IMG/VR virus record: IMGVR_UViG_3300037483_000947
DNA length: 64,000 nt
Strand: one strand, 5' to 3'
Source of the DNA: a virus
Under the pieces are notes generated by a model that ran no database searches, was not told the DNA's origin, and saw only the letters and a program-made list of their open reading frames with translations. Position numbers and translations under genes: made by a program. This document shows, piece after piece, positions 41,574 through 60,551 of this stretch (the stretch's first letter is position 1; each line of letters begins with the position of its first letter).

Positions 41574-42157
41574 TATACCAAATATATTAATTTGCACACC
41601 AGCCACAGCGTTATTCCTATGTATGCTGATGCGTTAAAATCCTGCTCGTTAAATACATAAACCGCTTCCACCTCATTCGGCGGCACTTCCTTCGCAAACA
41701 TCCACCGACCCGAAAACCACCATCTTACAAGCCAATATGGATTAATTCGCCACTCACTCATCTTTTTGATTTCCTGCCTATTCTTCCGGTGCCAATAATA
41801 GCTGATCTCAAACACCATGAAGTAAAACAGACTCAGCCAGCTAAATCCTTCCACCGCTTGCACATACCAGGGGAAATTGCTGTACCAGAACCACCACAGT
41901 AAACTCATCATCACAAACGCAATACTACTGTGCAAAACCCTATAATTTACTACTGCATTTTTATACAGTGTTCCGGCAATCGTGATATCACCTTCTTCAA
42001 ATATCCACTGCCAGAACCTATGCACGGTAAATCTGCCGAGTTTCTGCATAATATCTTCATAGATCCCGCCATACCAGTCCGCATCAATCCGGGTATGAAT
42101 ATACCACACCACCCCTGCTGCCAAACATGCTATTGCAATATTTATTAAATTTGTCAT
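41573..42157 (-). CDS. multi-pass membrane protein
   Basis: 194 aa, Trp/aromatic-rich, with several hydrophobic segments. Confidence 0.5.
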   Translation of the reverse strand: MTNLINIAIACLAAGVVWYIHTRIDADWYGGIYEDIMQKLGRFTVHRFWQWIFEEGDITIAGTLYKNAVVNYRVLHSSIAFVMMSLLWWFWYSNFPWYVQAVEGFSWLSLFYFMVFEISYYWHRKNRQEIKKMSEWRINPYWLVRWWFSGRWMFAKEVPPNEVEAVYVFNEQDFNASAYIGITLWLVCKLIYLV

Positions 42158-44679: not shown

Positions 44680-47600
44680 TTACTTAATCTTCTTCACCTT
44701 ATTCCAGGCATCCAGTGCCGCTTGTCTCTGAATTTTACGCTCTTCTTTGGTTATTTTCTTATCCCTGAATTGGCGCTCTATAACCGATTGCCGGTTGCTC
44801 AGTAATTCCAGAACCCGCATTTTATCAATTTTAAGGTCTTTTTCTTCCTGGTCTGATACCTTATACTGATAGAATTTCCCATCAATCTGCTTCAACCCGG
44901 ATTCCTCGAATACTTTGTTTATTTCGTATACTTTCTCCCGGAGTCCTATATATTTATCAAATTTTGAATATAAATCCAATGCTTCCTTTTGATGTTTCTC
45001 AGGAACCCCCCGCTTCTCACTCATTGTCTTTAGTAAATCCCTGTTTTCTTTAATTATACCATTATCATCTTCCTTTATACCCTCCTCAATGTCACGCTTA
45101 ATACTCTTGAATAGCTTACTGAAATCAAACTTTTTAATCACATTCTGTTTAACCTCCTCTATCCCAATCTGCTCAGGCACAAACCGCTCCTGAACCAGTA
45201 CATCTAAATCAATCTTTAAACTGTTTATTTCCTCCGCCAAACGCTCTTTTTCAGGATTCCCTTCTTTCAGTTCATTCTGTTTCCGCTGTAACTCCCTGAT
45301 ATACTTATCCAGCAGCATTCCCTCGAAACTTGTAGGAGTCTTTTCTTTCTCGTAGTCCTCAACCTCTTTTTTGAGTTTTCCAATTTCCTCATCAATTTCA
45401 GCCGATTTTTCTAACCGCTTCTCCTTTGTTAAACTGTCATCCCTCAGCGTTGCAGCTTTCTTTTGGTATAAATCACTTAATTTCCCGTTCCGCTTCTTGA
45501 TCTGATCATCTATGTTCTTTATCTGACTAACCGGATTAACCTTTAACCCAAAAATAGCGCTGGTTACAGCAGGCTCAATATCGAATACCCTCCCGTAATA
45601 ATCAGGCCGTTTTGTAATAGCGCTTCTCAATTTATCATATACATACCCGCCCCGGGTCATTCCCGGTATTTCAGGATACCAGGAGGGCATCCACATCTTA
45701 TAAATGTAGTCCATTGCTTTTAAATACTTCTCCCCGGGCTTATCCGCATCATTCCAGATGGTATGTCTGGTATAACGGTTGTAATTGGTTGCTATCTCGG
45801 CAGAGGTAGTGAAAACAGGATTCATCATTATATTGCCCAGCGTTTCAACTAAAAACGCGCCTGTAGGTGATTCCCCTGTTGTAGCAAGTGAATATCCCGA
45901 TATTGCGAGCTGGTAAATATCATTGTAAGGCATTATAAAGGTTAAATCCAGTAGCTGTATCTGTCCATCCCTGTCACGCCATGGTATCAGCATCCATTGC
46001 CCCAGCTTCATCCTGTCCGGTAAATCACGCTTTATATCCTCCCATTCATCATCTGTCATTCCCAGCGCCGCCAAAGCATACTGTGTAATAGCATAAAACA
46101 TCACAGGATACTTCCAGAAGCCTATAGGACGCGTTATAGAAGCCTCTATCATGCGCGGTATCGTTTTCCATGTCCATGTCACAAACGGCATACCGAAGAT
46201 GCTCTCACGGAAGCGCAGAAGCCATCTGGGAATATCATTGTAATCATACATCACCTTATTAGCCATTTTTATAGCATCTGAATCACTCTGCCCCTTCTCC
46301 TTTGAATGGAGAAATAATATCGTCTTAAACAGCACTTCATTACCCTGATACAGCCATCTTGCACCCTTGCCGACTCGCGTATCCACCAGCGTTGCTAATC
46401 CCAGCATTTTCAGAAACTTTCCGGTTCTGCTTAGATTTTTGAAGCCATCCCACCCGCCGGTCTCTCTATTGGCATATTCCTCGAAAATATCCAGAAACTT
46501 CTCTAATTCACCGGCTACATACGTCGAACCCCTTAAAAAATCCAGCTGTGCTGCATACTTGCCCTTACCCCGCATTTCCCTTATTGCCTCCGGTAAAAAC
46601 CGCATCTGGTCAAATATCGTTGTTCCATACATATCACACATTATAACCGCTGTGTAAAAGTTTCTGAACGCAGTAGGCGGATTCATCGGCACCTTCACCT
46701 GTTTCCACATCTGAGTTATCTGTTTCAGGAATTTCTCACTGTAATCCTGGCTACTCATTTCTGCAATCTCATCAAGATGTTTCCATACCTCCGGCTCTAC
46801 CCACATGCCTTTTAGCTTACCCAGCTTCTTATTATTCTTATCCACCGCTGTCCACCCCTCCACAGCGCTCTCAGAAGCCCATGCAGGGTTCTCTGCCACC
46901 GCCTCAAAGAACCTGCCTATTGAAATATCCTTGCCTTCAAGCAGAATTGATTTTGCCACCGGATATGCAGCCGTCAAAATCTCGCCCATTCTTACCCGCA
47001 CCCGAACCGGTATATCAGTCCTGTACATAGCAGATGTTAAATCCAGTCTTGTAGGCTTTATATATCCGTATTTTCTCAGCGTTCTCTCCTGCTCCTTGGT
47101 CAAATATACCCGCTTGAAATACCCCTCCTGCCCCTTTTTAAATGAATTTTTAACCTTCCTGTCCCTGATATCAATCTCATCCACCAGTTTCTTAACCTTT
47201 TGCTCAAACTTCGTTCTCGGCCTGAACTTTGGGTTTGCCCTGATTTCATCTACCAGAGGGTCAATTTCCTCTTCATTTTTGCCTTCTGCCTTTTTACTTT
47301 TGCCTATCAATCCCTGTAGTTCCGCCTCAAACTGCGCCTTTTCCGTTAATAGTTCATGGATTCTCTTTCTGGGAAGTTTGGTATTGTATGTTTCAACCGG
47401 CAGGACTTCGTACATCTCACCCAGTTTTTTCAGTTCTATTGTGAGCTTCTTTACCCGCTCAGCCCTTTGATTCAGGTCTTTCAGGTCTATACGAATAGAT
47501 GATTTCAGCCCGTTCTGCTCGTTAGGCTCGATGGTCAAATAACTACCCTGATTAACTCCGCCCCTTATTAACTGCTCCAATTTCCGCTGCTCAACAAATA

Positions 47601-50600
47601 AATACTTCTCTTTTGCCGCTATGTTACGGTAATACAGTGAATCACCTATTTCTTTAGCGAGCTGTTTATATCTTTGCACCCCAGCGTTCATCTCACTCCA
47701 TAATTCCTTGAAAGCCTCCTTATCGGGAATTGTGCCGAACTGGTCAGTCAGTTTCCGTATCAGTGCTATCTTATCAATGGATTTCTCGATTTTCCGCCGC
47801 ACGGGACCGCCTACAAACTTCTCGAAGAAATTATCCATCCCGCTTAACCCTATTCCCGCAGCCTTCAGAAGTTCATTAACCGTGCCTTCTCCTTTTTCAC
47901 TTTTCACTTCTGCGGTCTTTGCGCCCTTGCGTGAAAACACCTCTTCTGTTCTTTTCTCAAATTCTACAGCCTTTTCCTTTTCCTCTTTCTCCGCATCAGC
48001 CAGTTTTTTCACTGAAGCATTGTATAACTTCTCAGCCTGCTCATCACTCAGTACAAACGGTTTTTTGGTTGAATTACTGAATAATCCGTTAACAATAGTC
48101 TTAAACTCGGTTTTTGGAGTTGATTCAGGTCCTCCGGCTCTGTCTTTTCTGCCCTCGGTCTCAATCCTGCCTTCTCTGCTTAATACCGGATTATCCCTTA
48201 TAACCTTAGCTCCTATTTTCACCAGTTTATCAATGTTCTTATCAAACATCTTATCCGAAATAGTAAGGTTCTTCCGCACATTGAACCCCTCCGGCGGCGG
48301 AGGCACTCCATCCTTCTGAAACAGTATATTCGGATTCCCCGCGTCAAACGTGCCCCTGTTCCCCGTAGCAGATTTAATTTGGGTGGGATGAAATGCTATA
48401 TAACTATCCTCAGCATTATTTTTTATAAACTCCTGATATTGTTTTTCGGCAATATTCCTCTCTTTTGAGGGCAAGTTCATATTCATCCGCTTTTCATTAA
48501 GAACATCGCTACCGGAAACCTCACCAGTATTTTTATAAACCATGCCATCAAACCCTTTACTTTCAATAAGTTCTCTTAAATTTTTAGTCCATTGCCCTGC
48601 ATTTTGGGAACGTGCATATTTTAATTCAGTTTCTGTGAATAATCCCGTTTCTTTTAATCCCCAAGCTACATTATCTCCATCAAACCAACCAACATCTTCT
48701 ATTCTTAATGGTTTATTTATCTTTAAATATACCGGAAATATTCTTTGGTTAGTTTTACCTTCAACTCTGTTGTTCATATAAGCATATCTATCATTTGCTT
48801 GCCCCATAGTGCCAAAATGAATGCCAATATCATTCATTCGCCTTTTAAATCTATTAAAATCTACCGTAGCGGAAGTATAATGATACACCACCAGCGGTTT
48901 CCCTTCCGCATCCACCACTTTACTTACCTCTGTGCTCTCTGTGGCATCCTTCTTCTCCCAGTCCCCAAACCACTTCTTAAACTCCGGTGTATATATCTGC
49001 CTGCTTCTCTGCTCCTCTGTGGTTAGTTTAGCTTTCTGAAACATCGCCTGACCCTTATACAGCACATCCGCCTTCATCTCCGGCGTTATTGTAAGTGAGT
49101 GGATAGGCTTATATTCATCTGTATTGATATCCGGATGATTCTCTTTCATCCATTTTGTGAAAGTACCCTGAAAATTAGAATCTCTGTAATCGTCTTGATA
49201 CGTTTGATGATATTTATTAAACATATCATCGGACATCTCCTTTGTTTTTACCTCTCCATCTTCAACCTTTCCTCCCCATTTTTTCACATATTTATTCACA
49301 AAGTTCGGAAGCATTTCATCATAAAATACTTGCATCCCTTCACCGCCAATCGCCAGATTCTCACCTTCAAATACACCGTCAATCTCATCTTTTGCTATAT
49401 CTTCCCTGATTTGTTTCGCTATCCGTTTACCAACAACATCTTCTAGGTCAACCGTTTTACCTGCTATATGGGTAGTCCCTTCAAGTGGTATTATTTCATC
49501 GAAACTCTTAACCCCCTTCTTCTGACCCTGCACATTAACCTTATCGTCAGCATTTTTAAACCAAATAAGTTTATCAATATTCTGCCTCAATGCTTCATTA
49601 TAGCGGTCAATCTGGTCTTTCCCTAATGTCCATCCCACAGCATCATACCCTTCCTCCGCCGCTTTACGGATGAGGTTCTTCAGTACAAACTCATGCCACG
49701 TCTTTTTCATCGGCGCATTAGGAACACGTTCAGCCCCTATTTTACTTCTTACCCATAATCTAAATTCTGCACGAGTGTGATTTTCAACAGGCCATAAATA
49801 TTCAGTGCCATCAACAAATGCTTGGTAAAACTTGTCTCCTGTTTTTTCGACAATATCTATTGTAAATTTATCTTCTGCAGGTAATCCGTATCCGGCTTTC
49901 CGCCCCGTTTGGTGCAACTGGCTTTGCACCTCCTCAATAAATAACATTTTTTTACCATCAGTTAAAATTCTGTCATTCCCTCTGCCATGTGCAATTATTC
50001 CCTTTTCATGGTAGTGAGGCTCTTCATACTCAATTTCCGCCACCTTAAACAACCACTCCCTGTAATTCTCACCCCCCGGCAACTGCCATTGTGAGAATTT
50101 GGTTTCTTGATTTGGAGTAGTCTTTAACTCATCAATTTGGTCACGTAACGAATCTCTTATATCCCTTAATTCTTCCTCCTTTTCAAAATCTTTATCAGAC
50201 CTTTTATTTTTAGGAGAATTTACCCAATGATTCACATCGCTAGCCGCTTTTTCCCACTGTTTTTCTAGTCCAGCAAGATTATTTTCCCCCAGCACCTTCT
50301 CTTCCACTACCAGCTTATTATTCGCAATAAACTCCATCAGCTCATTCTTTGCGACCTTTGCGTCTTTGCGTGAACCCATCCACTCTTCCAGTCCCATCCA
50401 CTTTATCTCATCCTCTTTCACGCCGTTATTACGCAGTGTTTTCAGCACTTGCTCCGGCGATGAGTTATTACTTACCTTATCACCAGCAACCCGCTCCAAC
50501 TGACTGTAAAACGGCTCCGCAAATTGGCCCCTTGAAAAGGGGACACCCTGAGCGTAGTCGAAGGGTCTCAGATTTAGGCTTCTTCCCGCATTTATCGCAT

Positions 50601-53600
50601 TCATCATTAACTTTTCATCAGCAGTTATCCCGGTTCCTTCAACTATGTCCCGCGCCGCCATTTTAGTGAACTCACCCAGCGTCATCCTCCGCACAGGCTT
50701 CGCAGGGGTCCCAAATATACCGTTAAACCATTCCTGAATATAATTCCACAGCTCTCTCAGCCAACTTTGTTTCTTTGCATATAACTTATCCTCTGTCTCA
50801 ATCATCCCGCTTATGATATCAGCGCCGTCATAACCTATCAAATGAGCCAATCCCTCATTCAGTGCTTTTTCGCTGTAATCACCGTATAATGGTTTTCCAA
50901 ACTCCTGTTCAGGGTATTTAATCAAAATTTGCTCCATCATAGCTTCATCTTCGCTCATCAGTTTTAACCCCGCTTTGTAAAAACCAACGTGCTCTGATTT
51001 AATCCACCCCAGCCAGCCGTGCCCGAACTCATGCACAGGCGTATCTTCTGTTGCCTTATCCGCATTCAAGTGAGCAATCTTTGTATCCATATCAAAGAAA
51101 CCTCTGGGTGAATCATCCTCGGTAATTGATTTATACCCCTTTTTATTCAGCACCTTCACAATTTCAGCATTTTCATTTACCTGCCATTTTACACCCTTGT
51201 CCTTCATATTTCTGTTAATTCGCTTTGAAACAGCATGTAAATAATCAGCGCCGACACGCTTGTAGTTTATTCCCCTGTCGGTTTGAGCAAACAACTTCAT
51301 CTGGTCATCACCAAACTCCGGTTCAGCCGGTTTAACCCCTGCCAATTCCTGCTGCACATTATAAATTTCACGCCTAACCTCACTTAACCGCCTTGACACA
51401 TTATCATACTCACTCATTTCATCCATCTTCCATTCAGCCGTCTCAAGCCTCTTCTGGAGGCGGATTTCCTCCTCCTGCAATGCTTTCAGATAAACATTCC
51501 TGTTTGTGGTAAACTCTTCTTTTTGCTGAAGAATATTAGGATTTGTAGGTGAGAAAATGCCTTTGTTTCCCGTAGCAGATTTGATTTGTGTCGGCTCAAA
51601 TGTGATATAAGATTTATTTGAACCTGTAAGCCCTTTAATTCGTTCAAGTTGCACAATTCCATCGAAGCCAGCGTTTTTAATATTTGTTACTAAAAACATA
51701 CCTGAACGATTGAGATAAAACCATGGTTCATCAGGCGAATCAGAAAGTAAAGCCTCTTCCTGAGCTTCGTTTAATTTTATATTTTTACTCTTTAAATAAT
51801 TAATAAATTTTTTTGCTGATATTTTCTTGATACCCAAATCAGTTATATCTAAAGGATTTTTGATGTTTAAATAAACAGGAAGAAGTTGTGGTTTTTGCCC
51901 CCATTCAGGTAATCCGGCAAAAAGTGTTGCATAATCAGCAGAACTAAAGTAATTCAATCCTTTTTTAAATATATCATTATAAAAATCTCCTGTCCCATGA
52001 TACACCACCAGCGGTTTCCCTTCCGCATCCACTACCTTACTTGCGTTTTCAGGGTCATTCTGCCAATCACCAAACCAATCCTTAAAATTCTTTGTGTGAA
52101 TCTGCTTCCGGCTTTTTTCAATATCCTTCTGCATCATAATATTGCCTTCGGGTCCCAATCCCTCAACATCCGTAGCAATACCGCCTGTTTCAATATCCTC
52201 GCCTTTCTGAATAGCATACAGCGTTCTCAGCTTCCGGTTCAGTATATCCTTTCTCTTCGTATCAACTATCGAATCACTGAAATATATCAAATGCACTTCA
52301 CCCGGTGACTTAGTGTTCCTCCTCGAAAACCGACCCTTTAACTGGTCAAATACATCACCGGCATAGTCAGGTGAAGCCACATATACACTTCTGGGAGCAT
52401 CACCAACCACATCATCCAGATTAATCCCAATACCCCCTGTTTTAGTGGTCATTACCAAAACTTTTATATCACCCGCCTGAAAATCATCAATTCCTTCCAT
52501 CGTTCTCTTTTCCTTGCTCCCGTAAGCCCTGCCGAATTTTATACCCGCCTCGGTAAGTTTCCTCTCAATTATCGGGATAAATGCTTCAACATTACCGCCT
52601 ATCGAACTCAATACACTCTCACTGTAGAAACTGCCGACTATCACAACCTGTTTCCCCGCTTCCAAATCCTTCACCGTTTGCTGGAAAACATACTCCGCTT
52701 TCAATGGCTCGGTTAAATGCCACAGCTCATCCTTCCGCTTTGAACCGTAAGCCATCATAATACCCTTACCCTCTTCACGCGAAATCCTGCCGTATTTTAC
52801 CTGCTTCTTTATCCAATCAATTTTCTGCTGGTAAAACTCATCAATCATTGTTTGTTTGGTCAGTGTATCAGCATCCAGTCCAAGATTCTTTTCCTTGATC
52901 TCACCATAAAACGGATACTCACGCCTTATCATAGCGCCGTTCTTTATGGCCTCATTTCTCAGCTTCAGCACATTGTCAACAACCATATCCGGAGTTATAC
53001 CCGGTTTCATAGCTGACACATACCGCGTTCTGGCTCCAAAAAAATCTTTTTGTTCAACTATATTGAAACCCAGTTCATTAGTTATTTCATGCAGGGGTCT
53101 GTCGGTTATATCAGCAAGGTAGTAAGCTGCCTGTGTAACCTGATCCATCGGAGTAGCAGTAGCATACAGGTATCTCTCAGTTTTAACTTTTCTCGCTGCA
53201 TCACTCTTACCGGAGTCAATATTTTTCAGGTTATGCGATTCATCAAATATTGCAAGAGCATACTGTCCTGTGCCTATTTTTTTATCCCGGAGTTCGGTAT
53301 AACTTCCTACCTCGAAATCGGATAAAGCAATATTAGTGCGCCTTGCCTCCGGCACAAAACTCTCTTTTATAACTCTTGTGGATTCTGTTACGATCAGTAT
53401 TTTCCCGCCGGTCTGCTTTTTCACCTGGTCAGCTATAACAAGCTCTTCACGGGTTTTACCTACTCCCGTGCCGTCGGCTAATAGAAATGCTTTTTTGAGA
53501 TATGTGAGAAATCTTTGAAGTGCTAAATTGATTCCGTAGCGCTGATGCTCGTCAACATCATATTTACCCTTTACAACATGTTCCTTCGTAATTTCGGGTA

Positions 53601-56600
53601 GATTTTCCGTGTTTGCATAACGGAGTGGAGGTCGCCCTCTTCCGCCCTCTCCTCTATCTGCTGGAGAAACGGCTGGTCTGCCAGAAACTCGTTCTCCTTC
53701 AGAGGCGGGAAGCCCCCCTTCAGTTTGTCCAGTTCTTCCTTCGTAGGTGGAGAGAATGTATCCTTCACGGAACTTTTCGGGGTCGAATTTTTCAATGAGT
53801 TTTTCATCGTCTAAACTGTTTAACACCGGCAGACTTACATCTGTTCCGGCTTTGAAGTTTTTATATGAGTGTTTTAAATACGGCAGAAGCTGAGGCAATC
53901 CGTCGTCAATAAGCCTCTCTGCTACCTGCTGTATTCTGAAATTACCTAGCTTAATATAATTAAATGTCAGATGATCCGCAAGTATCTGTAAGTTTTCAGG
54001 CTCAATACCCTCGGTTTCATCCTTCTGGAAGAGGATATTCGGGTTACTCGCATCAAATGTTCCCACGTTCCCCGTAGCAGATTTAATCTGCGTCGGCTCA
54101 AGGGCTATATAAATATTTCCAACGTTTTCGGTATTGTATAATATAAGTCCATCATTATTATTTTTTATGGCTTCTTCAATATCGGCAGCTATATCAGGAA
54201 CAGCATAATACTCCTTATCATAATCTTTAACGAAAGGTCTTTTTATCTTTAAATAAACAGGCATAATATTAGGAGAACCTACACTTTTAGAATATAAAGA
54301 AGCTATTTCTGGGTCATCCGTAAAGAAGAATTGTAATTTATTTTTATCAAATTCTGTAAAATTTTTCCCTGTCCCATGATACACCACCAGCGGTTTCCCG
54401 TTCTCATCCACAACTTTACTGTCCCCAAACCACTTCTTAAATGGAGAGGATTCAGTTAGTTCCTTTTGGAACATCACGTTCCCTTCAGTGCCTTTATCAC
54501 CAATTCCACTTTTCCTGATCGCCTCCTGCTTCAACCTGTCAATTTCATCCAGCACCTTCTGCTTCTCATCATCTGTTTCCGCAAACTGAACTTTTTTCGG
54601 CTCCACAGTTGGACCGCCGAATAATCCTATTTCACTCTCACCTGCCTGCTTATATTTGCCCTCCTGCTTCTGCAGTTCATCACGTTCCTGCTCAATAGCA
54701 ATAATCTCATTCCTCACAGGCTCCAGAACCCTGTTTATATCCTCATTAGTGTAGCCTTTCTCTTTTTGCTTACCTACAAGTTCATTTCTCCGTGATTTTA
54801 ATTCCGCTTCCTTTTCTTTCAGCTCCGCAGCCAATTGATTCAATCTGCGCTTGTATTCACGCTCTGCGGTTGTGAGTTCTGCTGTCTGGGGAAGATTCAG
54901 TGGTTTGGTCCTGTCATACTCAGGATTCTCAACAATGTCAGTAATTTTATCAATAAACCCTGATTTCAGTTTAAACTTCTGGTAGTTCTTCTCATCCATC
55001 AGATAATCAAACATCTCATTTTCATGTGAATCCGTGATTTTCCTGCTTATTCTCTGCCTCACAGCGCCTACCCAGCTCGCAACTGTGCCCAGCCGTTCCT
55101 GTGTATCCTTATCCTCTGCCTTTGCCATTGCTACCAATGACTGAAATGTTTTGCCCTTTGGATTCAGGTATGAAAGTTCGATTATGTAGGTAGCATTGTT
55201 GCCGTATAAATCCTTCGCCTTCTGCCTGATTTCAGTAGTGCTTTCAATACCTTCTCTGATTTTCCTGAAATACAAAGCATTATCGGTTACTTTCTGCACC
55301 GCCCCTTGGTTTGATTCCTGTGCTATCTTTTTTGCCTGTTCAAATGTAACACCGTCTGTTTCCCTGATGAACTGTGTAGGAATTGTCTTAAAATCATCAT
55401 TAGCCTTGGCAAGTGACTCAAACGCTGCTAACCGGCTGTGTCCCGCCAACAGTTCAAATGTGCCATTTTTACGCTCATAAACCAGAATAGGAGGCATGGA
55501 TGAACGCACAAACTTACCTTCCTTCTCTTCATTCAATATCCGGTTATAAGTCTGCTCGCTGTATTCCTCACCCTGCCTGCCCTGATAATTCTTCAAGTCC
55601 TTTGTTATCGCACTCAACTCGACCTCACCAAATGCTTCAGTCTTTTTCACTTTTTCACCTTGTGAGACACTTTTCTTCTCTTTTACCGTAGTCTCTTTAA
55701 TTTCCTCACTTTTTTCCGTCTCACCTTTCAGTTCAGGATAATCTTTCAGTATATTCTCTGGCACAGTTTTGCCCTCTTTTTGTGCCTTCTTAATCAGTAC
55801 TATTTGTTCACTTCCAGCAAACTCGCTATCCCACGGAATTTTACTCTCTTTATCAGCCTTCTCAAACTCTGCTTTTGTCATTGAAACAGCGTAATCCATC
55901 CGGGTCTTTTCAGGTTCTATCTCTTTTTGCTTTTTTACTTTTGCTTTTTTACTTTCTTCCCTTACTTCCCCAATATCTTCCTTACCATGTTGAATTTGTG
56001 TTTGTTGCTCAGTTTCGGCAGGTTTGGGTTTTTCTTCCTCTTCCAGTTGTAGATTCTTGCCGCTTTTCTCTTCGCCAGGTTCAACGGTAGTCCCTCCTCG
56101 TGGAATTTGTTCCTCATTCCCTCGTATTGTTTCGGCATTTTGCACCTCCTTTTTTAATTCGCTATCTGCGATTTTTCTAAAATCAGTTGCGTCTTTACTG
56201 TTTAAATCATCAACTTCTTTTACCCAGTCTTTCCCTTTATTAACTTGAATTTCATTGTAAATCTCATTCATGCCGTCAACCTTATCAACCTTCCATCCTT
56301 CACCGGTATCAATCAAACTTATTACAGTTGGGTTATCCGTTCCTTCATTTTTGGCTTCAAAATCCTTGAATTGTGCCTCTGGAGTTTTACCTTTATAAAA
56401 ACCTTTGCGGGACCGGGGAAGAATCTCATCTCTGAATTGTTCTAAAGTAGGTTTAACAATAATCTGCTTATTCCCGATTTCCTGCCCGCCTTCTTTATTC
56501 CGCCTCCATACAGCTTTTATGCCCCTTCTTTCCTGTTTAGGAGTAATTTCCGCACCCTCTGTGGTAGGTTTTTCCTCCGCGCCTTCGCGTTCTTTGCGTG

Positions 56601-58281
56601 AGGTTATCTTTTCCTTCCCTTTGGGGAGGACAGGAGGGGCTATTCCCAATTCCTCTTCCGCTTCCTCAACACCCTCAATCTCCACCTTCTCAGGCAGTTT
56701 CTCTGTGGTCTCTGTGGCTATTTTTTCACTCTCCACTGGTTTTTCGGTTTCAATAAACTTCTTAGTCTCATCCTTTATCGAGGTCAGTGTTTCCTTTATA
56801 CCTTCACTCTCCAAATCCACCAGCTTCTGTGCATATTTCTTTTCCTGTTTCGTAGCATTAGGATCATTCATTATCTTCATCCCTGCACTGCCCAGTCCGC
56901 TCATCAATAACCCTGTCAGGAAACCTACCTCACCGCCTTCCAGAACCCCCTCTTTTAAGTCCCTGGATGCGTCATATAGCTGTTTAGCAGTGAGGTTCTT
57001 GCCAAACTGCTGAAACATCTCCTGAGCGCCTTCCTCAAAGCCCTGTTTAAACGATTCCAGGATAATTTGTTTTATCGGAGTCTTTGCAAACCTGCCTAAC
57101 CGGTCAAGAAAACGTGCTATCGGTGCCGCTTCTGTAGCGCCCAGCAGGATACCAATTATCCCTGATTGCAGTGCCTTCTTCTCACTGCCTGATACATTGT
57201 AAGCATTTTCAAATTCCTGCCCCGCCTGCGTCATACCACCCAATAATGCTACACTTACGCTCGGAGGCAGGTTAGCGCCCTTTGTCAGAAATGCGCCTGC
57301 TATAAATCCTGCCGTGGAACCGAATCCCTGAAACATCTGCACTCCCAGCATATCACGCACATTAGGATTAATTTTTGATGCTTCTTCAAGATGCTTGGAA
57401 ATCCCAACCCCGGTTTTGTATAAAATATTATCTTCCGGACGCGTGCCTGTGATTTTATTGAGCGGATAAGATGATACGCCGCCGAAGAACTTCAGCGGGT
57501 CAGCTAGTAGTGTGTTGAAAAAAGCATGTCCGAATGTATTTATAAAATCAAAGGGAACAGGTGTGAACTTCTTCTTTTCTATTCCCATCTCGCGCCTGAC
57601 ATAACGGTTCTTTTCGAGTTCTGTGCCCTTTAATAAATCCTCTGCGCCGCTGATGGCTTCACGCTCTTCTGCCGGAGTGAATGGTCTCTTATCATCATAT
57701 ACCTGCGGTTTCTTAATCTCGGTTCTTCCGATTTCCCTCGGAGCATTAAGTTCATCTCCAAATCCCAGTTTCCCACGCACATTTCTGAGTTTGTCCAGTA
57801 TCCGCTTTGTAGCGGTTTCCGGTTCCTTTGTTGATTCAACTATCGGCACATCAGGAGCAAGGCCTGAAACATACTCTTTCGGCGCTTCCCGCGTGATGCC
57901 TTCTACACTTCTTGCTGTTTCCGGTTCCTCTGTTACACCTGTTAATAGTTTTTTAAGAGCAATAATCTTTGGCAGAGCACCTGTCTTTGCAGTTGAAAGT
58001 ATATCAGCAGTTGTTCCCTCACCTCTTAAAATCTTGCCGGGACGCTGTAAATTGCCTTCTTCTATGATGTCCTGCGGTGATTTCAAAGAAATGGGATTCG
58101 CACCAAGCAAATTCTTCAGCATCTGCAATGAGTCACTCTTAGGTTTTTGAATAACCTCTTCCTGTTTCTGCTGCTGTAATTTCTGCCGTGCCCGCTCCTT
58201 TAACAGGTCAGAGGTAACATTTAAGCGTTTAAAGACATTCTCACGCCTTAAACCTGAATATTTGTCTTTGGTATCCGCCAT
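44680..58281 (-). CDS. giant polyvalent protein (4533 aa): ParB-like + SNF2 helicase + HExxH peptidase + three ART-like modules
   Basis: Single uninterrupted ORF. Domain motifs are listed in the sub-features. All plus-strand ORFs inside it look like antisense shadows. Confidence 0.85.
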   Translation of the reverse strand: MADTKDKYSGLRRENVFKRLNVTSDLLKERARQKLQQQKQEEVIQKPKSDSLQMLKNLLGANPISLKSPQDIIEEGNLQRPGKILRGEGTTADILSTAKTGALPKIIALKKLLTGVTEEPETARSVEGITREAPKEYVSGLAPDVPIVESTKEPETATKRILDKLRNVRGKLGFGDELNAPREIGRTEIKKPQVYDDKRPFTPAEEREAISGAEDLLKGTELEKNRYVRREMGIEKKKFTPVPFDFINTFGHAFFNTLLADPLKFFGGVSSYPLNKITGTRPEDNILYKTGVGISKHLEEASKINPNVRDMLGVQMFQGFGSTAGFIAGAFLTKGANLPPSVSVALLGGMTQAGQEFENAYNVSGSEKKALQSGIIGILLGATEAAPIARFLDRLGRFAKTPIKQIILESFKQGFEEGAQEMFQQFGKNLTAKQLYDASRDLKEGVLEGGEVGFLTGLLMSGLGSAGMKIMNDPNATKQEKKYAQKLVDLESEGIKETLTSIKDETKKFIETEKPVESEKIATETTEKLPEKVEIEGVEEAEEELGIAPPVLPKGKEKITSRKEREGAEEKPTTEGAEITPKQERRGIKAVWRRNKEGGQEIGNKQIIVKPTLEQFRDEILPRSRKGFYKGKTPEAQFKDFEAKNEGTDNPTVISLIDTGEGWKVDKVDGMNEIYNEIQVNKGKDWVKEVDDLNSKDATDFRKIADSELKKEVQNAETIRGNEEQIPRGGTTVEPGEEKSGKNLQLEEEEKPKPAETEQQTQIQHGKEDIGEVREESKKAKVKKQKEIEPEKTRMDYAVSMTKAEFEKADKESKIPWDSEFAGSEQIVLIKKAQKEGKTVPENILKDYPELKGETEKSEEIKETTVKEKKSVSQGEKVKKTEAFGEVELSAITKDLKNYQGRQGEEYSEQTYNRILNEEKEGKFVRSSMPPILVYERKNGTFELLAGHSRLAAFESLAKANDDFKTIPTQFIRETDGVTFEQAKKIAQESNQGAVQKVTDNALYFRKIREGIESTTEIRQKAKDLYGNNATYIIELSYLNPKGKTFQSLVAMAKAEDKDTQERLGTVASWVGAVRQRISRKITDSHENEMFDYLMDEKNYQKFKLKSGFIDKITDIVENPEYDRTKPLNLPQTAELTTAEREYKRRLNQLAAELKEKEAELKSRRNELVGKQKEKGYTNEDINRVLEPVRNEIIAIEQERDELQKQEGKYKQAGESEIGLFGGPTVEPKKVQFAETDDEKQKVLDEIDRLKQEAIRKSGIGDKGTEGNVMFQKELTESSPFKKWFGDSKVVDENGKPLVVYHGTGKNFTEFDKNKLQFFFTDDPEIASLYSKSVGSPNIMPVYLKIKRPFVKDYDKEYYAVPDIAADIEEAIKNNNDGLILYNTENVGNIYIALEPTQIKSATGNVGTFDASNPNILFQKDETEGIEPENLQILADHLTFNYIKLGNFRIQQVAERLIDDGLPQLLPYLKHSYKNFKAGTDVSLPVLNSLDDEKLIEKFDPEKFREGYILSTYEGRTGQTEGGLPASEGERVSGRPAVSPADRGEGGRGRPPLRYANTENLPEITKEHVVKGKYDVDEHQRYGINLALQRFLTYLKKAFLLADGTGVGKTREELVIADQVKKQTGGKILIVTESTRVIKESFVPEARRTNIALSDFEVGSYTELRDKKIGTGQYALAIFDESHNLKNIDSGKSDAARKVKTERYLYATATPMDQVTQAAYYLADITDRPLHEITNELGFNIVEQKDFFGARTRYVSAMKPGITPDMVVDNVLKLRNEAIKNGAMIRREYPFYGEIKEKNLGLDADTLTKQTMIDEFYQQKIDWIKKQVKYGRISREEGKGIMMAYGSKRKDELWHLTEPLKAEYVFQQTVKDLEAGKQVVIVGSFYSESVLSSIGGNVEAFIPIIERKLTEAGIKFGRAYGSKEKRTMEGIDDFQAGDIKVLVMTTKTGGIGINLDDVVGDAPRSVYVASPDYAGDVFDQLKGRFSRRNTKSPGEVHLIYFSDSIVDTKRKDILNRKLRTLYAIQKGEDIETGGIATDVEGLGPEGNIMMQKDIEKSRKQIHTKNFKDWFGDWQNDPENASKVVDAEGKPLVVYHGTGDFYNDIFKKGLNYFSSADYATLFAGLPEWGQKPQLLPVYLNIKNPLDITDLGIKKISAKKFINYLKSKNIKLNEAQEEALLSDSPDEPWFYLNRSGMFLVTNIKNAGFDGIVQLERIKGLTGSNKSYITFEPTQIKSATGNKGIFSPTNPNILQQKEEFTTNRNVYLKALQEEEIRLQKRLETAEWKMDEMSEYDNVSRRLSEVRREIYNVQQELAGVKPAEPEFGDDQMKLFAQTDRGINYKRVGADYLHAVSKRINRNMKDKGVKWQVNENAEIVKVLNKKGYKSITEDDSPRGFFDMDTKIAHLNADKATEDTPVHEFGHGWLGWIKSEHVGFYKAGLKLMSEDEAMMEQILIKYPEQEFGKPLYGDYSEKALNEGLAHLIGYDGADIISGMIETEDKLYAKKQSWLRELWNYIQEWFNGIFGTPAKPVRRMTLGEFTKMAARDIVEGTGITADEKLMMNAINAGRSLNLRPFDYAQGVPFSRGQFAEPFYSQLERVAGDKVSNNSSPEQVLKTLRNNGVKEDEIKWMGLEEWMGSRKDAKVAKNELMEFIANNKLVVEEKVLGENNLAGLEKQWEKAASDVNHWVNSPKNKRSDKDFEKEEELRDIRDSLRDQIDELKTTPNQETKFSQWQLPGGENYREWLFKVAEIEYEEPHYHEKGIIAHGRGNDRILTDGKKMLFIEEVQSQLHQTGRKAGYGLPAEDKFTIDIVEKTGDKFYQAFVDGTEYLWPVENHTRAEFRLWVRSKIGAERVPNAPMKKTWHEFVLKNLIRKAAEEGYDAVGWTLGKDQIDRYNEALRQNIDKLIWFKNADDKVNVQGQKKGVKSFDEIIPLEGTTHIAGKTVDLEDVVGKRIAKQIREDIAKDEIDGVFEGENLAIGGEGMQVFYDEMLPNFVNKYVKKWGGKVEDGEVKTKEMSDDMFNKYHQTYQDDYRDSNFQGTFTKWMKENHPDINTDEYKPIHSLTITPEMKADVLYKGQAMFQKAKLTTEEQRSRQIYTPEFKKWFGDWEKKDATESTEVSKVVDAEGKPLVVYHYTSATVDFNRFKRRMNDIGIHFGTMGQANDRYAYMNNRVEGKTNQRIFPVYLKINKPLRIEDVGWFDGDNVAWGLKETGLFTETELKYARSQNAGQWTKNLRELIESKGFDGMVYKNTGEVSGSDVLNEKRMNMNLPSKERNIAEKQYQEFIKNNAEDSYIAFHPTQIKSATGNRGTFDAGNPNILFQKDGVPPPPEGFNVRKNLTISDKMFDKNIDKLVKIGAKVIRDNPVLSREGRIETEGRKDRAGGPESTPKTEFKTIVNGLFSNSTKKPFVLSDEQAEKLYNASVKKLADAEKEEKEKAVEFEKRTEEVFSRKGAKTAEVKSEKGEGTVNELLKAAGIGLSGMDNFFEKFVGGPVRRKIEKSIDKIALIRKLTDQFGTIPDKEAFKELWSEMNAGVQRYKQLAKEIGDSLYYRNIAAKEKYLFVEQRKLEQLIRGGVNQGSYLTIEPNEQNGLKSSIRIDLKDLNQRAERVKKLTIELKKLGEMYEVLPVETYNTKLPRKRIHELLTEKAQFEAELQGLIGKSKKAEGKNEEEIDPLVDEIRANPKFRPRTKFEQKVKKLVDEIDIRDRKVKNSFKKGQEGYFKRVYLTKEQERTLRKYGYIKPTRLDLTSAMYRTDIPVRVRVRMGEILTAAYPVAKSILLEGKDISIGRFFEAVAENPAWASESAVEGWTAVDKNNKKLGKLKGMWVEPEVWKHLDEIAEMSSQDYSEKFLKQITQMWKQVKVPMNPPTAFRNFYTAVIMCDMYGTTIFDQMRFLPEAIREMRGKGKYAAQLDFLRGSTYVAGELEKFLDIFEEYANRETGGWDGFKNLSRTGKFLKMLGLATLVDTRVGKGARWLYQGNEVLFKTILFLHSKEKGQSDSDAIKMANKVMYDYNDIPRWLLRFRESIFGMPFVTWTWKTIPRMIEASITRPIGFWKYPVMFYAITQYALAALGMTDDEWEDIKRDLPDRMKLGQWMLIPWRDRDGQIQLLDLTFIMPYNDIYQLAISGYSLATTGESPTGAFLVETLGNIMMNPVFTTSAEIATNYNRYTRHTIWNDADKPGEKYLKAMDYIYKMWMPSWYPEIPGMTRGGYVYDKLRSAITKRPDYYGRVFDIEPAVTSAIFGLKVNPVSQIKNIDDQIKKRNGKLSDLYQKKAATLRDDSLTKEKRLEKSAEIDEEIGKLKKEVEDYEKEKTPTSFEGMLLDKYIRELQRKQNELKEGNPEKERLAEEINSLKIDLDVLVQERFVPEQIGIEEVKQNVIKKFDFSKLFKSIKRDIEEGIKEDDNGIIKENRDLLKTMSEKRGVPEKHQKEALDLYSKFDKYIGLREKVYEINKVFEESGLKQIDGKFYQYKVSDQEEKDLKIDKMRVLELLSNRQSVIERQFRDKKITKEERKIQRQAALDAWNKVKKIK
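48312..48990 (-). other. ART-like module 3 of giant protein
   Basis: FKKWFGDWEKK..VVDAEGKPLVVYHYTS..FPVYLKINKPL..GFDGMVYKN..AFHPTQIKSATGNRGTFDAGNPNILFQKD. Confidence 0.55.
51019..51033 (-). other. HExxH zinc-metallopeptidase motif in giant protein
   Basis: TPVHEFGHGWLGW; the HEFGH codons were read directly. Confidence 0.5.
51520..52105 (-). other. ART-like module 2 of giant protein
   Basis: FKDWFGDWQND..VVDAEGKPLVVYHGTG..NYFSS..LPVYLNIKNPL..GFDGIVQLE..TFEPTQIKSATGNKGIFSPTNPNILQQKE. Confidence 0.55.
52285..53560 (-). other. SNF2/DEAD-like helicase module of giant protein
   Basis: LLADGTGVGKT (motif I), LAIFDESHNLKN (motif II), TKTGGIGINLDD, QLKGRFSRRN (motif VI-like). Confidence 0.7.
54022..54450 (-). 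other. ART-like module 1 of giant protein
   Basis: FKKWFGDSKVVDENGKPLVVYHGTG..FFFTD..MPVYLKIKRPF..ALEPTQIKSATGNVGTFDASNPNILFQKD. Confidence 0.55.
55360..55590 (-). other. ParB/sulfiredoxin-like nuclease module of giant protein
   Basis: PPILVYERKNGTFELLAGHSRLAAFESL is a ParB-type GxxR box context. Confidence 0.6.
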
Positions 58282-58293: not shown

Positions 58294-59781
58294 TTAATAA
58301 GGCCAGTTAATTTTAGAAACGAACTCATCTACCCGCTTGTAAGCATCTTCCAAAACATCACCCGGGATGTGGCCTTCTAAGCTGCCCATCCACGTATAAA
58401 CACCCTCCAGCACCGACATTGCATTCAGCTTTGCATCCTCACTTTTCTGCCTCTGCATCTGGCTCAGTGCATTATTGAATTCACCGTAAAACTTACCCAG
58501 CTCATCCACCATAAACTTTTGGTCGTCACCCAGATTCTTGTAAGTTTCCTCATCTATTCCTGAGCCTACGCTGGTTTCCGTTATTAGTTCATCCAATTCA
58601 CTTGGTGCATTTGCTATCAAATCAGCCAGTTCATCACTCACCTCTTCATCTAAATATGACCTGTAATCACTGATTCCTTTCAGTTCACCCGCTGTGAACT
58701 TTAATAAATCCTCTTTTGATAAACTCTTCAGCTTCTCCGGAGTCCACTTGCTGAAATCAGTATTCTTTGAACTGCCTGTATAACCTCGTCTCCCTGTAGG
58801 CGTGTAAACCCCTGTTTTATCTCTTTTATCTTTGTAGGAACTATAATCTTCCATCTCCTTTTTATTCAGTTCCGCCTTCTTCTCAATCACCCACTCGCCG
58901 TTCTGATAAACCCATTCACCGTGATAGGGATTACCTTCGGAGTCCTCAAATACTTTCCAGTTCTTTGTTGTTGGAGGCTTTTCCTTATTGGCATATTTAA
59001 CAGAATGAACGTTGAGGGGATTGTAAGGGTCAAAATAAACCACTTCACCGCTTTCTTTATCAACATAGGTTTCAAACTTTGTCTTTTCCGGTTCCTGAAG
59101 AAGCATTGACTGTAACTCTTTCCCGAATTGCTCTTCATATTGATTCCCCATTGAGCCTGATGAACGCAGCATAGGTCCGTATTTTAGTGCGAGGTTTTCA
59201 AGTATTTTATTGAAATCCGCAACCTCGCCTTCTTTACCTGCGTTTTGAGTGAAAAACTCTGTATCTTCGTCAGTGAATCCCGCCATTTTATAACGTGCCT
59301 GCTCCAGTTCCTCTTTTGTCATTGGCACCTGCTTCTTGCCGGTTTTGAACGCATTGGGATAATTTTTTAAAAACTCTTCCTTTTTCCCCAGCGTAGTCAA
59401 ATAATCGTCAAAAGTAACCTCTTTTGTGTATTCCTTGGTTTTCGGGTCTGTGTATCTGTCCATGTAATCAGTGTAATCACGTAATTCCTGGGGGATCTGT
59501 TCTTCGGGCAGCATATCGAAATAATCTACATTTGGCACAGAAATATCCTCTTCCCTGAACTCTGGAAGTTCCGCTCCTGTGGTTTGAGCTAATTTCTGGC
59601 GGAGTGTTCCAACCCGGTTCAAATCATCAAATTGCTGTTTATACTGTTTTAACTCATTTACAGCCTTTTCATAGTTATCATACCGGGTAATATCGGATAC
59701 ATTCCCCTGTAACTCGTTTATAGGACCCGCATACTTTGACCAGAAATCCTGTGACTCGCCCCTTGGTATTCTTATTGGCAT
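58294..59781 (-). CDS. hypothetical virion-module protein
   Basis: 495-aa acidic ORF directly upstream of the giant gene. Confidence 0.55.
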   Translation of the reverse strand: MPIRIPRGESQDFWSKYAGPINELQGNVSDITRYDNYEKAVNELKQYKQQFDDLNRVGTLRQKLAQTTGAELPEFREEDISVPNVDYFDMLPEEQIPQELRDYTDYMDRYTDPKTKEYTKEVTFDDYLTTLGKKEEFLKNYPNAFKTGKKQVPMTKEELEQARYKMAGFTDEDTEFFTQNAGKEGEVADFNKILENLALKYGPMLRSSGSMGNQYEEQFGKELQSMLLQEPEKTKFETYVDKESGEVVYFDPYNPLNVHSVKYANKEKPPTTKNWKVFEDSEGNPYHGEWVYQNGEWVIEKKAELNKKEMEDYSSYKDKRDKTGVYTPTGRRGYTGSSKNTDFSKWTPEKLKSLSKEDLLKFTAGELKGISDYRSYLDEEVSDELADLIANAPSELDELITETSVGSGIDEETYKNLGDDQKFMVDELGKFYGEFNNALSQMQRQKSEDAKLNAMSVLEGVYTWMGSLEGHIPGDVLEDAYKRVDEFVSKINWPY

Positions 59782-59807: not shown

Positions 59808-60551
59808 TTAGCGTATTCGGAACCGCTTTTTTAACCCTGCTTCGGGTAATAATTTGTCTGATAAACCTAGTTTGTCTAATAAACCCGAATAATCGTAATT
59901 CTCACCCTCACCCATACCCAGTAAATTACCGGTTGAGAGCATACTTTTCTCTGGACTCAAAAATCCGTAGTCACCGCCCATACCCATATTCCCATCGTTT
60001 CCCAGATTATCCATTCCGGTTGTTATCGGAGTGCCGTCAGTCCCTCCCATTCCCATCCCTGTTGCTTTCGGGTCCAGAAATCCCAGCGCTTTCCCAAAAC
60101 CCATTCCGAGGTTAGCCCCTTCAATAGCTCCCCCCATAAACCGGCTGAAACCGCCTTCAGGTTCTTCCACCCCTGCTTCCAACTCACCAATATTATCTTC
60201 TACCGAGGCATTGAGCGCCGCGGTTCTCGTATCAATAGCGCTTTTCTCACCGATATTGCCCTCTATCAAATCCTCTTCATTGCTGTAAATACTGCCAATA
60301 GGGTCCATTCCGCGTGATGTGAGTTTTGAGTTCAAAGCCCCGCGCCTGTCTGTTACCCTTCCGCTGAAAGTTCTGTCACTTTGCAGCTTCTCAGTCCCGG
60401 CTTGCTGCAGATTACGCGCAATCTGCGCCCTGAGCGCCTTTATGGCTGCCTGGCGCTGTTTATTCCGCTTCTCTTCCTCAGAGTCACCAAACAGGCTTGA
60501 AAACCCTTTAATCCCTGCTCCTATAAGCGCACTTGTTATAATAGGTTCCAT
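59808..60551 (-). CDS. Gly/Met-rich hypothetical protein
   Basis: 247 aa with GMGMGGTDGT..GNDGNMGMGGDYGF low-complexity tracts. Confidence 0.5.
   Translation of the reverse strand: MEPIITSALIGAGIKGFSSLFGDSEEEKRNKQRQAAIKALRAQIARNLQQAGTEKLQSDRTFSGRVTDRRGALNSKLTSRGMDPIGSIYSNEEDLIEGNIGEKSAIDTRTAALNASVEDNIGELEAGVEEPEGGFSRFMGGAIEGANLGMGFGKALGFLDPKATGMGMGGTDGTPITTGMDNLGNDGNMGMGGDYGFLSPEKSMLSTGNLLGMGEGENYDYSGLLDKLGLSDKLLPEAGLKKRFRIR
59814..59824 (-). promoter_or_regulatory. recurrent motif variant GGTTCCGAATA
   Basis: Lies in the last codons of 59808-60551, about 35 nt before the next start (59781). Confidence 0.35.

Follow-up and report, generated by a model that had tools for sequence, protein, structure and literature searches.

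What a phage might gain from devoting a fifth of a long stretch of DNA to one protein chain, and at which point of infection such a chain might act, are the questions raised by a locus in the IMG/VR virus record IMGVR_UViG_3300037483_000947. The whole stretch analysed, 64,000 nucleotides in length and termed the window throughout, is recognisable as phage DNA from its genes for TerL, DnaB and a methylase, and it carries a 13.6-kb open reading frame (ORF) that begins with ATG, runs for 4533 codons without an internal stop and fills 21% of the window. An initial annotation of this DNA had rightly described one uninterrupted frame of about one fifth of the window, to which we add its strand (minus), and had read the product, here termed the giant, as a polyvalent protein that is packaged and injected. 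We arrive at a related conclusion: with a probability of roughly 0.7, the giant is a packaged and ejected polyvalent effector protein, serving host takeover and anti-defence, that is built on the scaffold of an ejection protein. Packaging and injection appear most likely because the C-terminal end-piece of the chain is related to a capsid-carried, ejected protein of short-tailed phages. The P1 Dar proteins and T4 Alt work in like fashion, as packaged, ejected effector carriers.

The class to which such a protein belongs is already documented, in the survey of Iyer et al. (2017) and in Bcep22/JC1, phi24B and N4. The novelty claimed initially was over-rated, because virion-borne podovirus polyvalent proteins of about 4500 amino acids (aa), Bcep22 gp75 and JC1 gp69, are already on record. 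As predicted from its sequence, what is unusual in this member is its cargo, which comprises three ADP-ribosyltransferase (ART) modules with neither a methylase nor a transglycosylase. New in this work are a two-ended delivery scaffold, an uncharacterised domain of ~450 aa termed X and a motif flanking every ART module, and each of these leads is of wider interest. A likely role can now be assigned to one fifth of the window, with the prediction that three ADP-ribosyltransferases, a DNA translocase and a ParB-type NTPase/nuclease are injected at the first moment of infection; the giant is a concrete candidate for tests of defence and counter-defence.

The two conserved ends of the chain

The C-terminal residues of the giant had been described as some 1400 residues without a recognisable motif. 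They number 1208 (aa 3326-4533) and hold a conserved module. A search with aa 3330-4533 returned 12 proteins and a profile search 14, eight of these new. In every homologue (P0001-P0022, proteins of 600-3400 aa) the match lies at the C-terminal end; it spans giant residues ~3650-4330 and, in the closer relatives, ~3450-4533. Two of the proteins with this module, P0014 (3385 aa) and P0016 (3040 aa), also bear LPD1 and LPD5, which are hallmark domains of polyvalent proteins, and a tblastn search with the module returned a single record, MW202615. Its central part, which we term C-core, was modelled with AlphaFold2 (aa 3651-4330) as an all-helical structure with a mean predicted local distance difference test (pLDDT) score of 73.8 and a predicted template modelling score of 0.65. 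When the model was compared by Foldseek with predicted viral structures (BFVD), 44 matches were obtained at E<=1e-3, nearly all of them C-terminal pieces of phage proteins annotated with polyvalent domains (LPD38, ART-PolyVal, zeta toxin, RelA/SpoT, methylase, helicase).

The BFVD matches also included a 1114-aa 'tail protein' of Anabaena phage A-4L (E 5e-6), which is A4L_26, or gp26, and corresponds to PDB 9K3A chain A. Cryo-EM has placed gp26 among the proteins gp26-gp29 of a pentameric pre-ejectosome inside the capsid, where it lies in the outer layer that also holds one DNA turn, forms part of the core stack above the portal and contacts DNA (PMC12002296). The relationship was also recovered by sequence profiles. 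A 22-sequence C-core alignment matched gp26 in hhalign with a probability of 78.5% (E 1.7e-5, 450 columns), and a C-core hidden Markov model (HMM) from four jackhmmer rounds matched it with E 1.2e-11 in a set of 8 proteins, a value that rescales to ~3e-7 for the 177,635 PDB sequences; the latter match is centred on a conserved block, PFxxW...P...RP...F. The HMMs used here and below for C-core and for the N-terminal domain were built from 64 and 152 sequences, and their E-values were computed for databases of 2-8 sequences. By these comparisons, C-core is remotely homologous to a protein that resides within the capsid. The same HMM also links C-core to phi24B gp47 and Bcep22 gp75, as detailed in the final section, and together the three remote homologies support the initial proposal that the giant is packaged and injected. 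LPD38, which Iyer et al. (2017, PMC5512222) list as confined to polyvalent proteins of phage type, follows the C-core match in phi24B gp47, with a 16-residue overlap, and is thus what Pfam recognises of the distal portion of this C-terminal module; in P0057, it overlaps the distal half of C-core.

The other end of the chain holds a Gly/Ala-rich helical domain, termed N-gly. An exhaustive HMMER search with aa 220-520 matched 1300 representative clusters at E<=1e-3, of which 413 also pass E<=1e-10; the best 150 matches are in proteins of 246-4481 aa and lie close to the N-terminus (median first residue, 143). Among 13 of the largest N-gly proteins scanned with Pfam, LPD38 was found in five and InPase in four, and further domains included helicases, LPD1, LPD5, SLT, ART-PolyVal, RadC, LPD23 and methyltransferases. 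N-gly itself is covered by no Pfam, PHROG or NCBIfam model, and a tblastn search against phage genomes gave no match, so that a domain with 1300 clusters is here brought to notice. No other parts of the protein are as widely conserved as the two very large unassigned ends, which the initial annotation thought might be new. In an AlphaFold2 model of aa 230-1130, computed from an input alignment of 30 rows, N-gly forms long helices (pLDDT 76-94) for which Foldseek found nothing below E 1 in the PDB; likenesses to helical membrane proteins (ExbB/TolQ, channels) appeared at E>1 and were not relied on. The Gly-rich hydrophobic helices reported initially are thus real and belong to a conserved domain, but only a single 19-residue window of the region reaches a Kyte-Doolittle value >= 1.4, and these helices are not classical transmembrane helices. 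A lytic transglycosylase immediately precedes the N-gly region in P0057 (aa 30-128) and JC1 gp69 (aa 80-192), and T7 gp16 likewise has one at its N-terminus; no transglycosylase is detectable in the window protein.

N-gly and C-core occur together in 45 of the 152 N-gly proteins, at lengths of 1217-4306 aa. C-core is always in the C-terminal part of these proteins and mostly reaches the C-terminal end, and the order N-gly then C-core is constant, with very different inserts between the two. The shortest of these proteins (P0124, P0091, P0148, P0170 and P0082) contain little beyond both ends. Parts of the giant's own module order recur as well: N-gly, ParB-like domain and helicase follow one another in P0155, and N-gly, helicase, X and C-core in P0038. 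The repetition of this order in independent proteins argues against an assembly chimera. A wider reading, which we regard as possible rather than probable, is that N-gly and C-core constitute a general, reusable delivery chassis of short-tailed phages, derived from an ancestral ejection protein of ~1200 aa that consisted of the two ends, into which almost any cargo, up to >3000 aa, could be inserted; here the cargo would be cut free at the motif N(I/V)(M/L)(F/M/Q)QK, and X would be a new enzyme family travelling with an HExxH peptidase. Should the chassis exist, it would be a natural protein-injection platform. If the scaffold idea holds, the end modules would mark which phage giants are packaged and ejected, and could guide experiments on how very large proteins pass through short tails.

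Modules carried between the ends

The most firmly recognised cargo consists of the three ART-like modules proposed in the initial annotation, which were confirmed by Pfam (ART-PolyVal, PF18760; 179.3 bits against a gathering threshold of 31.2, in three stretches) and by self-comparison. Copy 2 shares 47% identity with copy 1 and copy 3 shares 45%, and 54 positions are invariant across the three, including the His of VVYH(G/Y)T in strand 1 and the motif QIKSATGN. The active site of ART-PolyVal comprises H (strand 1), Y (strand 2) and D (strand 5), of which only the His could be placed in the sequence-based alignment of the giant. The prototype of the domain is found in the N4-like virion RNA polymerase of Roseovarius Plymouth podovirus 1. 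At both edges of each ART module lies the motif (G)N(I/V)(M/L)(F/M/Q)QK (aa 1270, 1417, 2049, 2251, 3080 and 3320), which occurs six times in 4533 aa against an expectation of 0.46. ART modules of other proteins end in NPxI(L/R)(F/Y), and in P0127 the sequence ILFQE stands on either side. The flanking motif may be an element of the fold or a site of proteolytic processing.

Between the first and second ART modules lies a predicted ATPase of superfamily 2 (SF2). Its translation contains DGTGVGKT, DESH, ATATP, TGGIGINLDD and QLKGRFSRR (motifs I, II, III, V and VI), and the Pfam scores of aa 1578-1958 all fall below the cutoffs: 19.4/24.9 for SNF2-rel_dom, 20.5/23.5 for Helicase_C, 19.5/22.5 for ResIII and 18.3/27 for AAA_34. 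In P0155, the homologous region scores above threshold with the Pfam models ResIII, AAA_34 and Helicase_C, though not with SNF2-rel_dom, and comes near threshold with the Strawberry-notch C-terminal domain. Because the motifs are intact and P0155 passes three of these models, we label the region an SF2 ATPase of the SWI2/SNF2 or Strawberry-notch kind, and the SNF2 helicase claimed initially is partly confirmed: the full SF2 motif set stands, and the giant's own Pfam scores remain sub-threshold. ATPases of these types are carried by polyvalent proteins (Iyer et al., PMC5512222). Neither Pfam nor NCBIfam detects a methyltransferase domain in the giant, and the helicase stands alone, without the adenine methyltransferase-helicase dyad of the DarB type.

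The ParB-like domain was recognised from its fold. In the AlphaFold2 model, aa 880-1130 (pLDDT 60-97) begin with an alpha+beta part followed by helices, and the four best Foldseek matches in the PDB are Noc and ParB structures, among them 7ol9 (Noc), 7bm8 and 7bnr (ParB), from Bacillus subtilis Noc and the ParB proteins of Caulobacter and Myxococcus. Their E-values are modest (1.5e-3 to 4.6e-3), with a probability of 1.00 and a template modelling score of 0.32-0.44 on the target; rank 5 is SbnI, also ParB/Srx-like, and the remaining matches have E > 1. A ParB-like GxxR box (AGHSR / TGRHR) is kept in four homologues, and in the metagenomic homologues P0173 and P0174 the domain precedes an N6-adenine methyltransferase (NPPFG motif), a known type of ParB-methylase fusion. 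By sequence, no ParB signal was obtained from Pfam (giant and homologues, E<=1), from NCBIfam, from a PDB profile search of the region or from phmmer with a more canonical homologue. Membership of the DdrB-like subfamily was rejected (hhalign against P1 DdrB, the prototype for the ParB domains of polyvalent proteins (PMC5512222), gave a probability of 0.2%). On the strength of the modelled fold, we accept aa 880-1130 as ParB/Noc-like, which upholds the initial ParB claim by fold only.

The initial annotation had staked its reading on HMM or structure searches finding at least one of the ParB, SNF2 and ART folds, and the ART fold was found with Pfam and the ParB fold with Foldseek. All of the motifs that it named were located in the translation: ELLAGHSRLAA at aa 943, DGTGVGKT at 1603, DESH at 1680, GGIGINLDD at 1949 and HEFGH at 2417. 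The metallopeptidase proposed from the last of these remains a candidate by its motif. A Glu-bearing segment, ALNEGLAHL, follows HEFGH at a distance of ~55 aa. The region has no Pfam/HMM or PDB match, its sole homologue, P0104, has EEFSH at this position and has lost the first His, and a BLAST comparison with the P1 DdrB peptidase aligned the 5-residue HExGH motif alone (E 3.8).

The peptidase candidate is followed by the X domain, which was found in nine other N-gly polyvalent proteins and in P0175 and has no match in Pfam, PHROGs or the PDB sequences, the latter including a PDB profile search. Its invariant His, Arg, Glu and Asp residues are suggestive of an enzyme. An HExxH motif adjoins X twice, before it in the giant (HEFGH) and after it in P0175 (HETGH). 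A combined query of the ParB, peptidase and X regions returned three proteins. The coordinates of all modules are collected in Table 1. Over most of the Lys/Glu-rich linker that separates N-gly from the ParB-like domain, pLDDT is < 50 in the AlphaFold2 model, with short helices of up to ~80.

Table 1. Modules of the giant protein and neighbouring genes, in window coordinates
Feature	Residues (aa)	Window position	Strand	Basis or remark
Whole ORF, giant polyvalent ejection-type protein (predicted)	1-4533	44680..58281	-	4533 aa, ~517 kDa, pI 6.6
N-terminal leader, charged	1-229	57595..58281	-	phmmer against 171 related proteins: 0 matches
N-gly, Gly/Ala-rich helical domain	275-503	56773..57459	-	common to N-terminal parts of phage polyvalent proteins
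Lys/Glu-rich linker	521-879	55645..56721	-	33% Lys+Glu; predicted mostly disordered
ParB/Noc-like fold, then helical domain	880-1130	54892..55644	-	ELLAGHSRLAA at aa 943
ART-PolyVal module 1	1264-1425	54007..54492	-	Pfam, self-comparison
SF2 (SWI2/SNF2- or Strawberry-notch-like) ATPase (predicted)	1570-2042	52156..53574	-	motifs I, II, III, V, VI; sub-threshold Pfam
ART-PolyVal module 2	2043-2256	51514..52155	-	Pfam, self-comparison
Candidate zincin-like metallopeptidase	2345-2570	50572..51249	-	motif only: HEFGH at 2417
X domain, ~450 aa	2570-3075	49057..50574	-	invariant His, Arg, Glu, Asp residues
ART-PolyVal module 3	3076-3325	48307..49056	-	Pfam, self-comparison
Linker and N-terminal extension of C-terminal module	3326-3650	47332..48306	-	conserved from ~aa 3450
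C-core, ~680-aa all-alpha module	3651-4330	45292..47331	-	homologues, AlphaFold2 model, BFVD Foldseek, hhalign, HMM
Lys/Glu-rich helical (coiled-coil-like) tail	4331-4533	44683..45291	-	
495-aa gene directly upstream, candidate partner ejection protein		58294..59781	-	synteny
247-aa gene		59808..60551	-	syntenic with 220-aa gene of contig L001, the second gene upstream of the homologue
Two downstream genes, 160 aa and 656 aa		42154..44606	-	conserved in closest relative, L005
656-aa ORF		42154..44124	-	650-aa counterpart in L005; sub-threshold beta-propeller repeat matches (DUF5122, Rax2)

Genomic setting, proposed mechanism and competing explanations

In all relatives for which the contig was read, the gene for the giant-type protein is last, or last before fibre or tailspike genes, in a structural block of podovirus type. 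In contigs L002 and L007, it comes after SU10-type capsid and adaptor genes and a gene of ~850-950 aa and closes that block; in L004, it has a P22 gp10-like gene upstream and a tailspike head-binding gene downstream, a position that in P22 belongs to the ejection proteins; and in MW202615, a 65-kb circular podovirus, a 2166-aa homologue is the last gene on the strand with structure-type annotations, past which the genes run in the opposite direction and are metabolic. In the window, ORFs 3583-4920, 1532-2116, 667-1530 and 1-663 have counterparts in the genes that open the L001 block, and ORFs 59808-60551 and 58294-59781 in the pair of genes immediately before the L001 homologue; therefore, the structural block, which begins with TerL, leaves the window at its left end and re-enters at its right. 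ORF 1532-2116 additionally has a weak match to SU10_adaptor (E 0.078). A complete circle was considered and rejected, because genes run off both ends (1-663; 63400-64000). A 942-aa gene of L001 without a counterpart in the window probably lies in the unseen part. TerL and an adjacent 725-aa ORF, which is in portal position and has no HMM match, are at 7-12 kb, ~33 kb from the giant. The initial placement beside head and internal-protein genes draws its support only from synteny with related contigs, the actual neighbours being unannotated and TerL distant.

The gene directly upstream of the giant (495 aa) is 27% identical over 322 aa to a 411-aa gene of L001, and a gene of ~330-530 aa precedes the giant-type gene also in L002, L007, MW202615, phi24B, Bcep22 and JC1; BLAST found no similarity of the 495-aa protein to phi24B gp46/47 or Bcep22 gp74. 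On the downstream side, the 656-aa ORF is a candidate for a fibre or receptor-binding protein.

These observations are compatible with the following course of events. During assembly, C-core would be built into the core stack above the portal, as gp26 is in A4. At infection, the chain would pass through the tail in a largely unfolded state, either before the DNA or together with it; such threading is plausible because long Lys/Glu-rich disordered linkers and loosely connected domains suit it, as has been proposed for the virion RNA polymerase of N4. The N-terminal domain may associate with the envelope or with the inner-membrane part of the ejection channel, and the cargo would refold in the cytoplasm. 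There, the ARTs might ADP-ribosylate host proteins or nucleic acids, and the ParB-like NTPase/nuclease and the translocase might work on DNA, whether to shield the incoming genome or to attack targets in the host or its defences. More speculatively, the HEFGH module or another protease could cut at the N(I/V)(M/L)(F/M/Q)QK motifs flanking each ART, which would free the enzymes.

Several observations weigh against a packaged and ejected effector protein. The phage of the window is known here from sequence alone, and detection in virions comes from relatives only. The catalytic activities of all modules are predicted, that of the peptidase from its motif only. The links to A4 gp26, phi24B and Bcep22 are remote (16% identity to gp26). 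A Foldseek search of the PDB with the C-core model gave no match below E 1, although gp26 is deposited as 9K3A_A, and Pfam LPD38 (PF18857) is not matched by the giant's C-core at E<=0.1. N-gly has no structural or experimental anchor, contains one strongly hydrophobic segment and matches Bcep22 gp75 only weakly (E 0.002). The giant's neighbours have no recognisable structural-protein matches in Pfam or PHROG, even at E<=1. Finally, in the closest relative, L005 (48-54% identity, L005:1-3291), the similarity begins only at giant aa 3535. As to the missing PDB match, either the conformation differs or the searched library was without that chain. In L005, the 183 nt before the C-module, at the contig edge, contain stops in all three forward frames; there the module may form a gene of its own, of ~1000 aa, and cargo and scaffold may not always form one chain.

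Two other explanations of the giant are, in our judgement, unlikely. The protein might be made late and left out of the particle, acting in the producing cell in superinfection exclusion, host shut-off or DNA modification, with its position reflecting co-transcription. Such a role would accord with virion detection being confined to relatives, with neighbours that lack structural HMM matches and with the proposal that some polyvalent proteins may act against competing elements (Iyer et al., PMC5512222). It sits poorly, however, with the homology of C-core to a capsid-internal protein seen by cryo-EM and to two giants found in, or related to those found in, purified virions, and with a position at the end of the structural block that is the same in every relative read. 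An equally improbable proposal is that the giant is essentially a structural protein of the ejectosome or its channel, in which the enzyme-like inserts are decayed, inactive passengers. The sub-threshold Pfam scores of the helicase, the invisibility of the ParB and peptidase regions to HMMs and the loss of the first His in the peptidase homologue could be taken as signs of decay; yet the ART copies keep their 54 invariant positions, with the His and QIKSATGN among them, even though identity to copy 1 is no more than 45-47%, the helicase retains motifs I, II, III, V and VI intact, four homologues keep the ParB-like GxxR box, and ~9 kb of dead coding sequence would be surprising in a phage whose window alone measures 64 kb.

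That the ORF is an artefact of assembly or annotation, a chimera or error-fused genes in place of a ~1000-aa ejection protein and separate effectors, is highly improbable: the late onset of similarity and the stop codons in L005, and the many C-module relatives of just 1000-2000 aa, could be cited for it, but 4533 codons run without a stop, composition and codon usage are uniform from one third of the gene to the next and agree with the remainder of the window, the same module order is found within one chain in independent proteins of 3000-4300 aa, and the sequenced genomes of phi24B, Bcep22 and JC1 hold equivalent single ORFs of 2807-4602 aa. In figures, codon frequencies of the giant gene correlate with those of 13 other window ORFs at r = 0.958, and its thirds correlate mutually at r = 0.89-0.93; the GC content of third codon positions is 0.42 for the giant gene and for the 13 comparison ORFs alike. 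All large ORFs of the window share the strand of the giant gene, and the window is even in GC content and GC skew along its length. Nothing in the composition of the giant gene suggests a chimera.

The packaged, ejected effector protein thus remains the reading that we prefer, and the initial polyvalent-protein interpretation is borne out by the predicted combination, in one chain at the end of a structural block, of three ART-PolyVal modules, an SF2/SNF2-type ATPase and a ParB fold. The giant gene gave zero matches against phages by megablast, in the PDB by phmmer and in NCBIfam, and a PHROGs scan of the protein recognised nothing except the ART modules.

Further features of the locus and of the window can be listed briefly. 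The giant's ATG lies 12 nt past the stop codon of the upstream gene and is preceded by A/T-rich sequence with no Shine-Dalgarno sequence; the gene after the giant has a Shine-Dalgarno-like AAGGAG, unlike the giant's own start. The 73-nt gap 3' of the giant ORF contains an 11/12 sigma-70-like site (44638-44609, minus strand), and promoter-like and terminator-like sites are not above chance expectation. TerL (881 aa, 9261-11906, minus strand) has an intein inside, with Intein_splicing, Hint_2 and PT-HINT matches at aa ~505-845. A C5-cytosine DNA methyltransferase of 600 aa (22313-24115, minus strand) matches Pfam in an N-terminal stretch (aa 5-228) and PHROGs in a C-terminal one (aa 415-585), a split that suggests a large insertion; the start of this ORF overlaps the end of the upstream 606-aa ORF. 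The only tRNA gene of the window is for tRNA-Asp (GTC; 12705-12778, minus strand).

Comparison with known systems

The nearest counterparts in size and setting are Bcep22 gp75 (4602 aa) and JC1 gp69 (4515 aa), which are described as 'DarB-like antirestriction protein' of Lessievirus podophages (Gill et al. 2011, via PMC9144972). JC1 gp69 was detected with 51 unique peptides from CsCl-purified virions, represents 22% of the genome as the last gene of the morphogenesis module, and has lytic transglycosylase, methyltransferase, helicase, LPD3 and LPD38 domains (PMC9144972). Like these proteins, the giant (4533 aa) ends a virion morphogenesis module and takes up about a fifth, of the genome in their case and of the window in ours; theirs are preceded by a virion protein of ~510-530 aa, the giant by the 495-aa gene; and all hold an ATPase, of SNF2/HepA type in Bcep22 and JC1. 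Bcep22 gp75 matches the C-core HMM at aa 4053-4290 (E 4.8e-7), and in JC1 gp69 LPD38 is at the equivalent place (aa 4195-4401). The proteins differ in cargo. Bcep22 and JC1 carry an N-terminal lytic transglycosylase, an adenine methyltransferase-helicase dyad and LPD3, whereas the window protein has three ARTs, a ParB-fold domain, the X domain and HEFGH, with no detectable transglycosylase or methyltransferase; Bcep22 gp75 and the window protein share no similarity at the BLAST level.

The Stx podophage phi24B provides the closest parallel in layout. Its gp47 (vb_24B_48, 2807 aa in GenBank) was found by virion proteomics, is invisible in the reconstruction and has been proposed to be an encapsidated ejection protein (bioRxiv 10.64898/2026.04.10.717836). 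The N-gly HMM matches aa 357-459 of gp47 (E 7.7e-7) and the C-core HMM aa 2366-2505 (E 3.4e-6), with Pfam LPD38 at 2490-2695, such that N-gly, polyvalent cargo and C-core stand in the same order as in the window protein, and the gene for gp47 is the last of the late block, with a 421-aa gene before it. The phi24B protein is, however, 1700 aa shorter, carries LPD5, LPD1 and MuF_C with no ART or helicase and passes Pfam LPD38, which the window protein does not. A4 gp26 shares with C-core an all-alpha structure and the PFxxW...P...RP...F motif block over ~450 columns, and its gene closes the run of ejection-protein genes and is followed directly by the fibre genes; unlike the giant, gp26 is a protein of 1114 aa that has no enzyme cargo and no N-gly, the ejection functions being spread over gp26 to gp29.

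The virion RNA polymerase of N4, gp50, resembles the giant in its way of working, a comparison in which sequence relationship of the end modules has no part. It is a giant chain of 3500 aa that is encapsidated in few copies and ejected through the short tail, with an N-terminal membrane domain and loosely connected domains (PMC13434306). N4 differs in having two separate partner ejection proteins, gp51 and gp52, and no RNA polymerase family is among the giant's Pfam, PHROG and NCBIfam matches.

With the polyvalent class of Iyer et al. (2017; PMC5512222), which includes P1 DarB and DdrB, the giant shares ART, SWI2/SNF2 ATPase and ParB-type modules and a candidate HExxH module, and such proteins are likewise encoded next to late genes and predicted to be injected. 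The giant joins at least two unrelated activities in one chain, as the class does, with its predicted ART-PolyVal modules, SF2 ATPase and ParB/Noc fold, and synteny places its gene next to late or virion genes; as in ejection proteins, homology to a capsid-internal protein is combined with a position at the end of the structural operon. Several differences set it apart from the class as surveyed. A link to the virion named in that work is MuF fusion (PMC5512222), and in the window protein it is an ejection-protein scaffold; the helicase is unpaired with the usual adenine methylase and LPD36, and the ParB-like domain is not detectably DdrB-like; and N-gly and X are without a Pfam match, including to the LPD models that match relatives. 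Viewed across these systems, the giant joins three literatures in one two-ended family: the polyvalent proteins of Iyer et al., the 'DarB-like' virion giants of Bcep22-like phages and phi24B, and the A4 pre-ejectosome.

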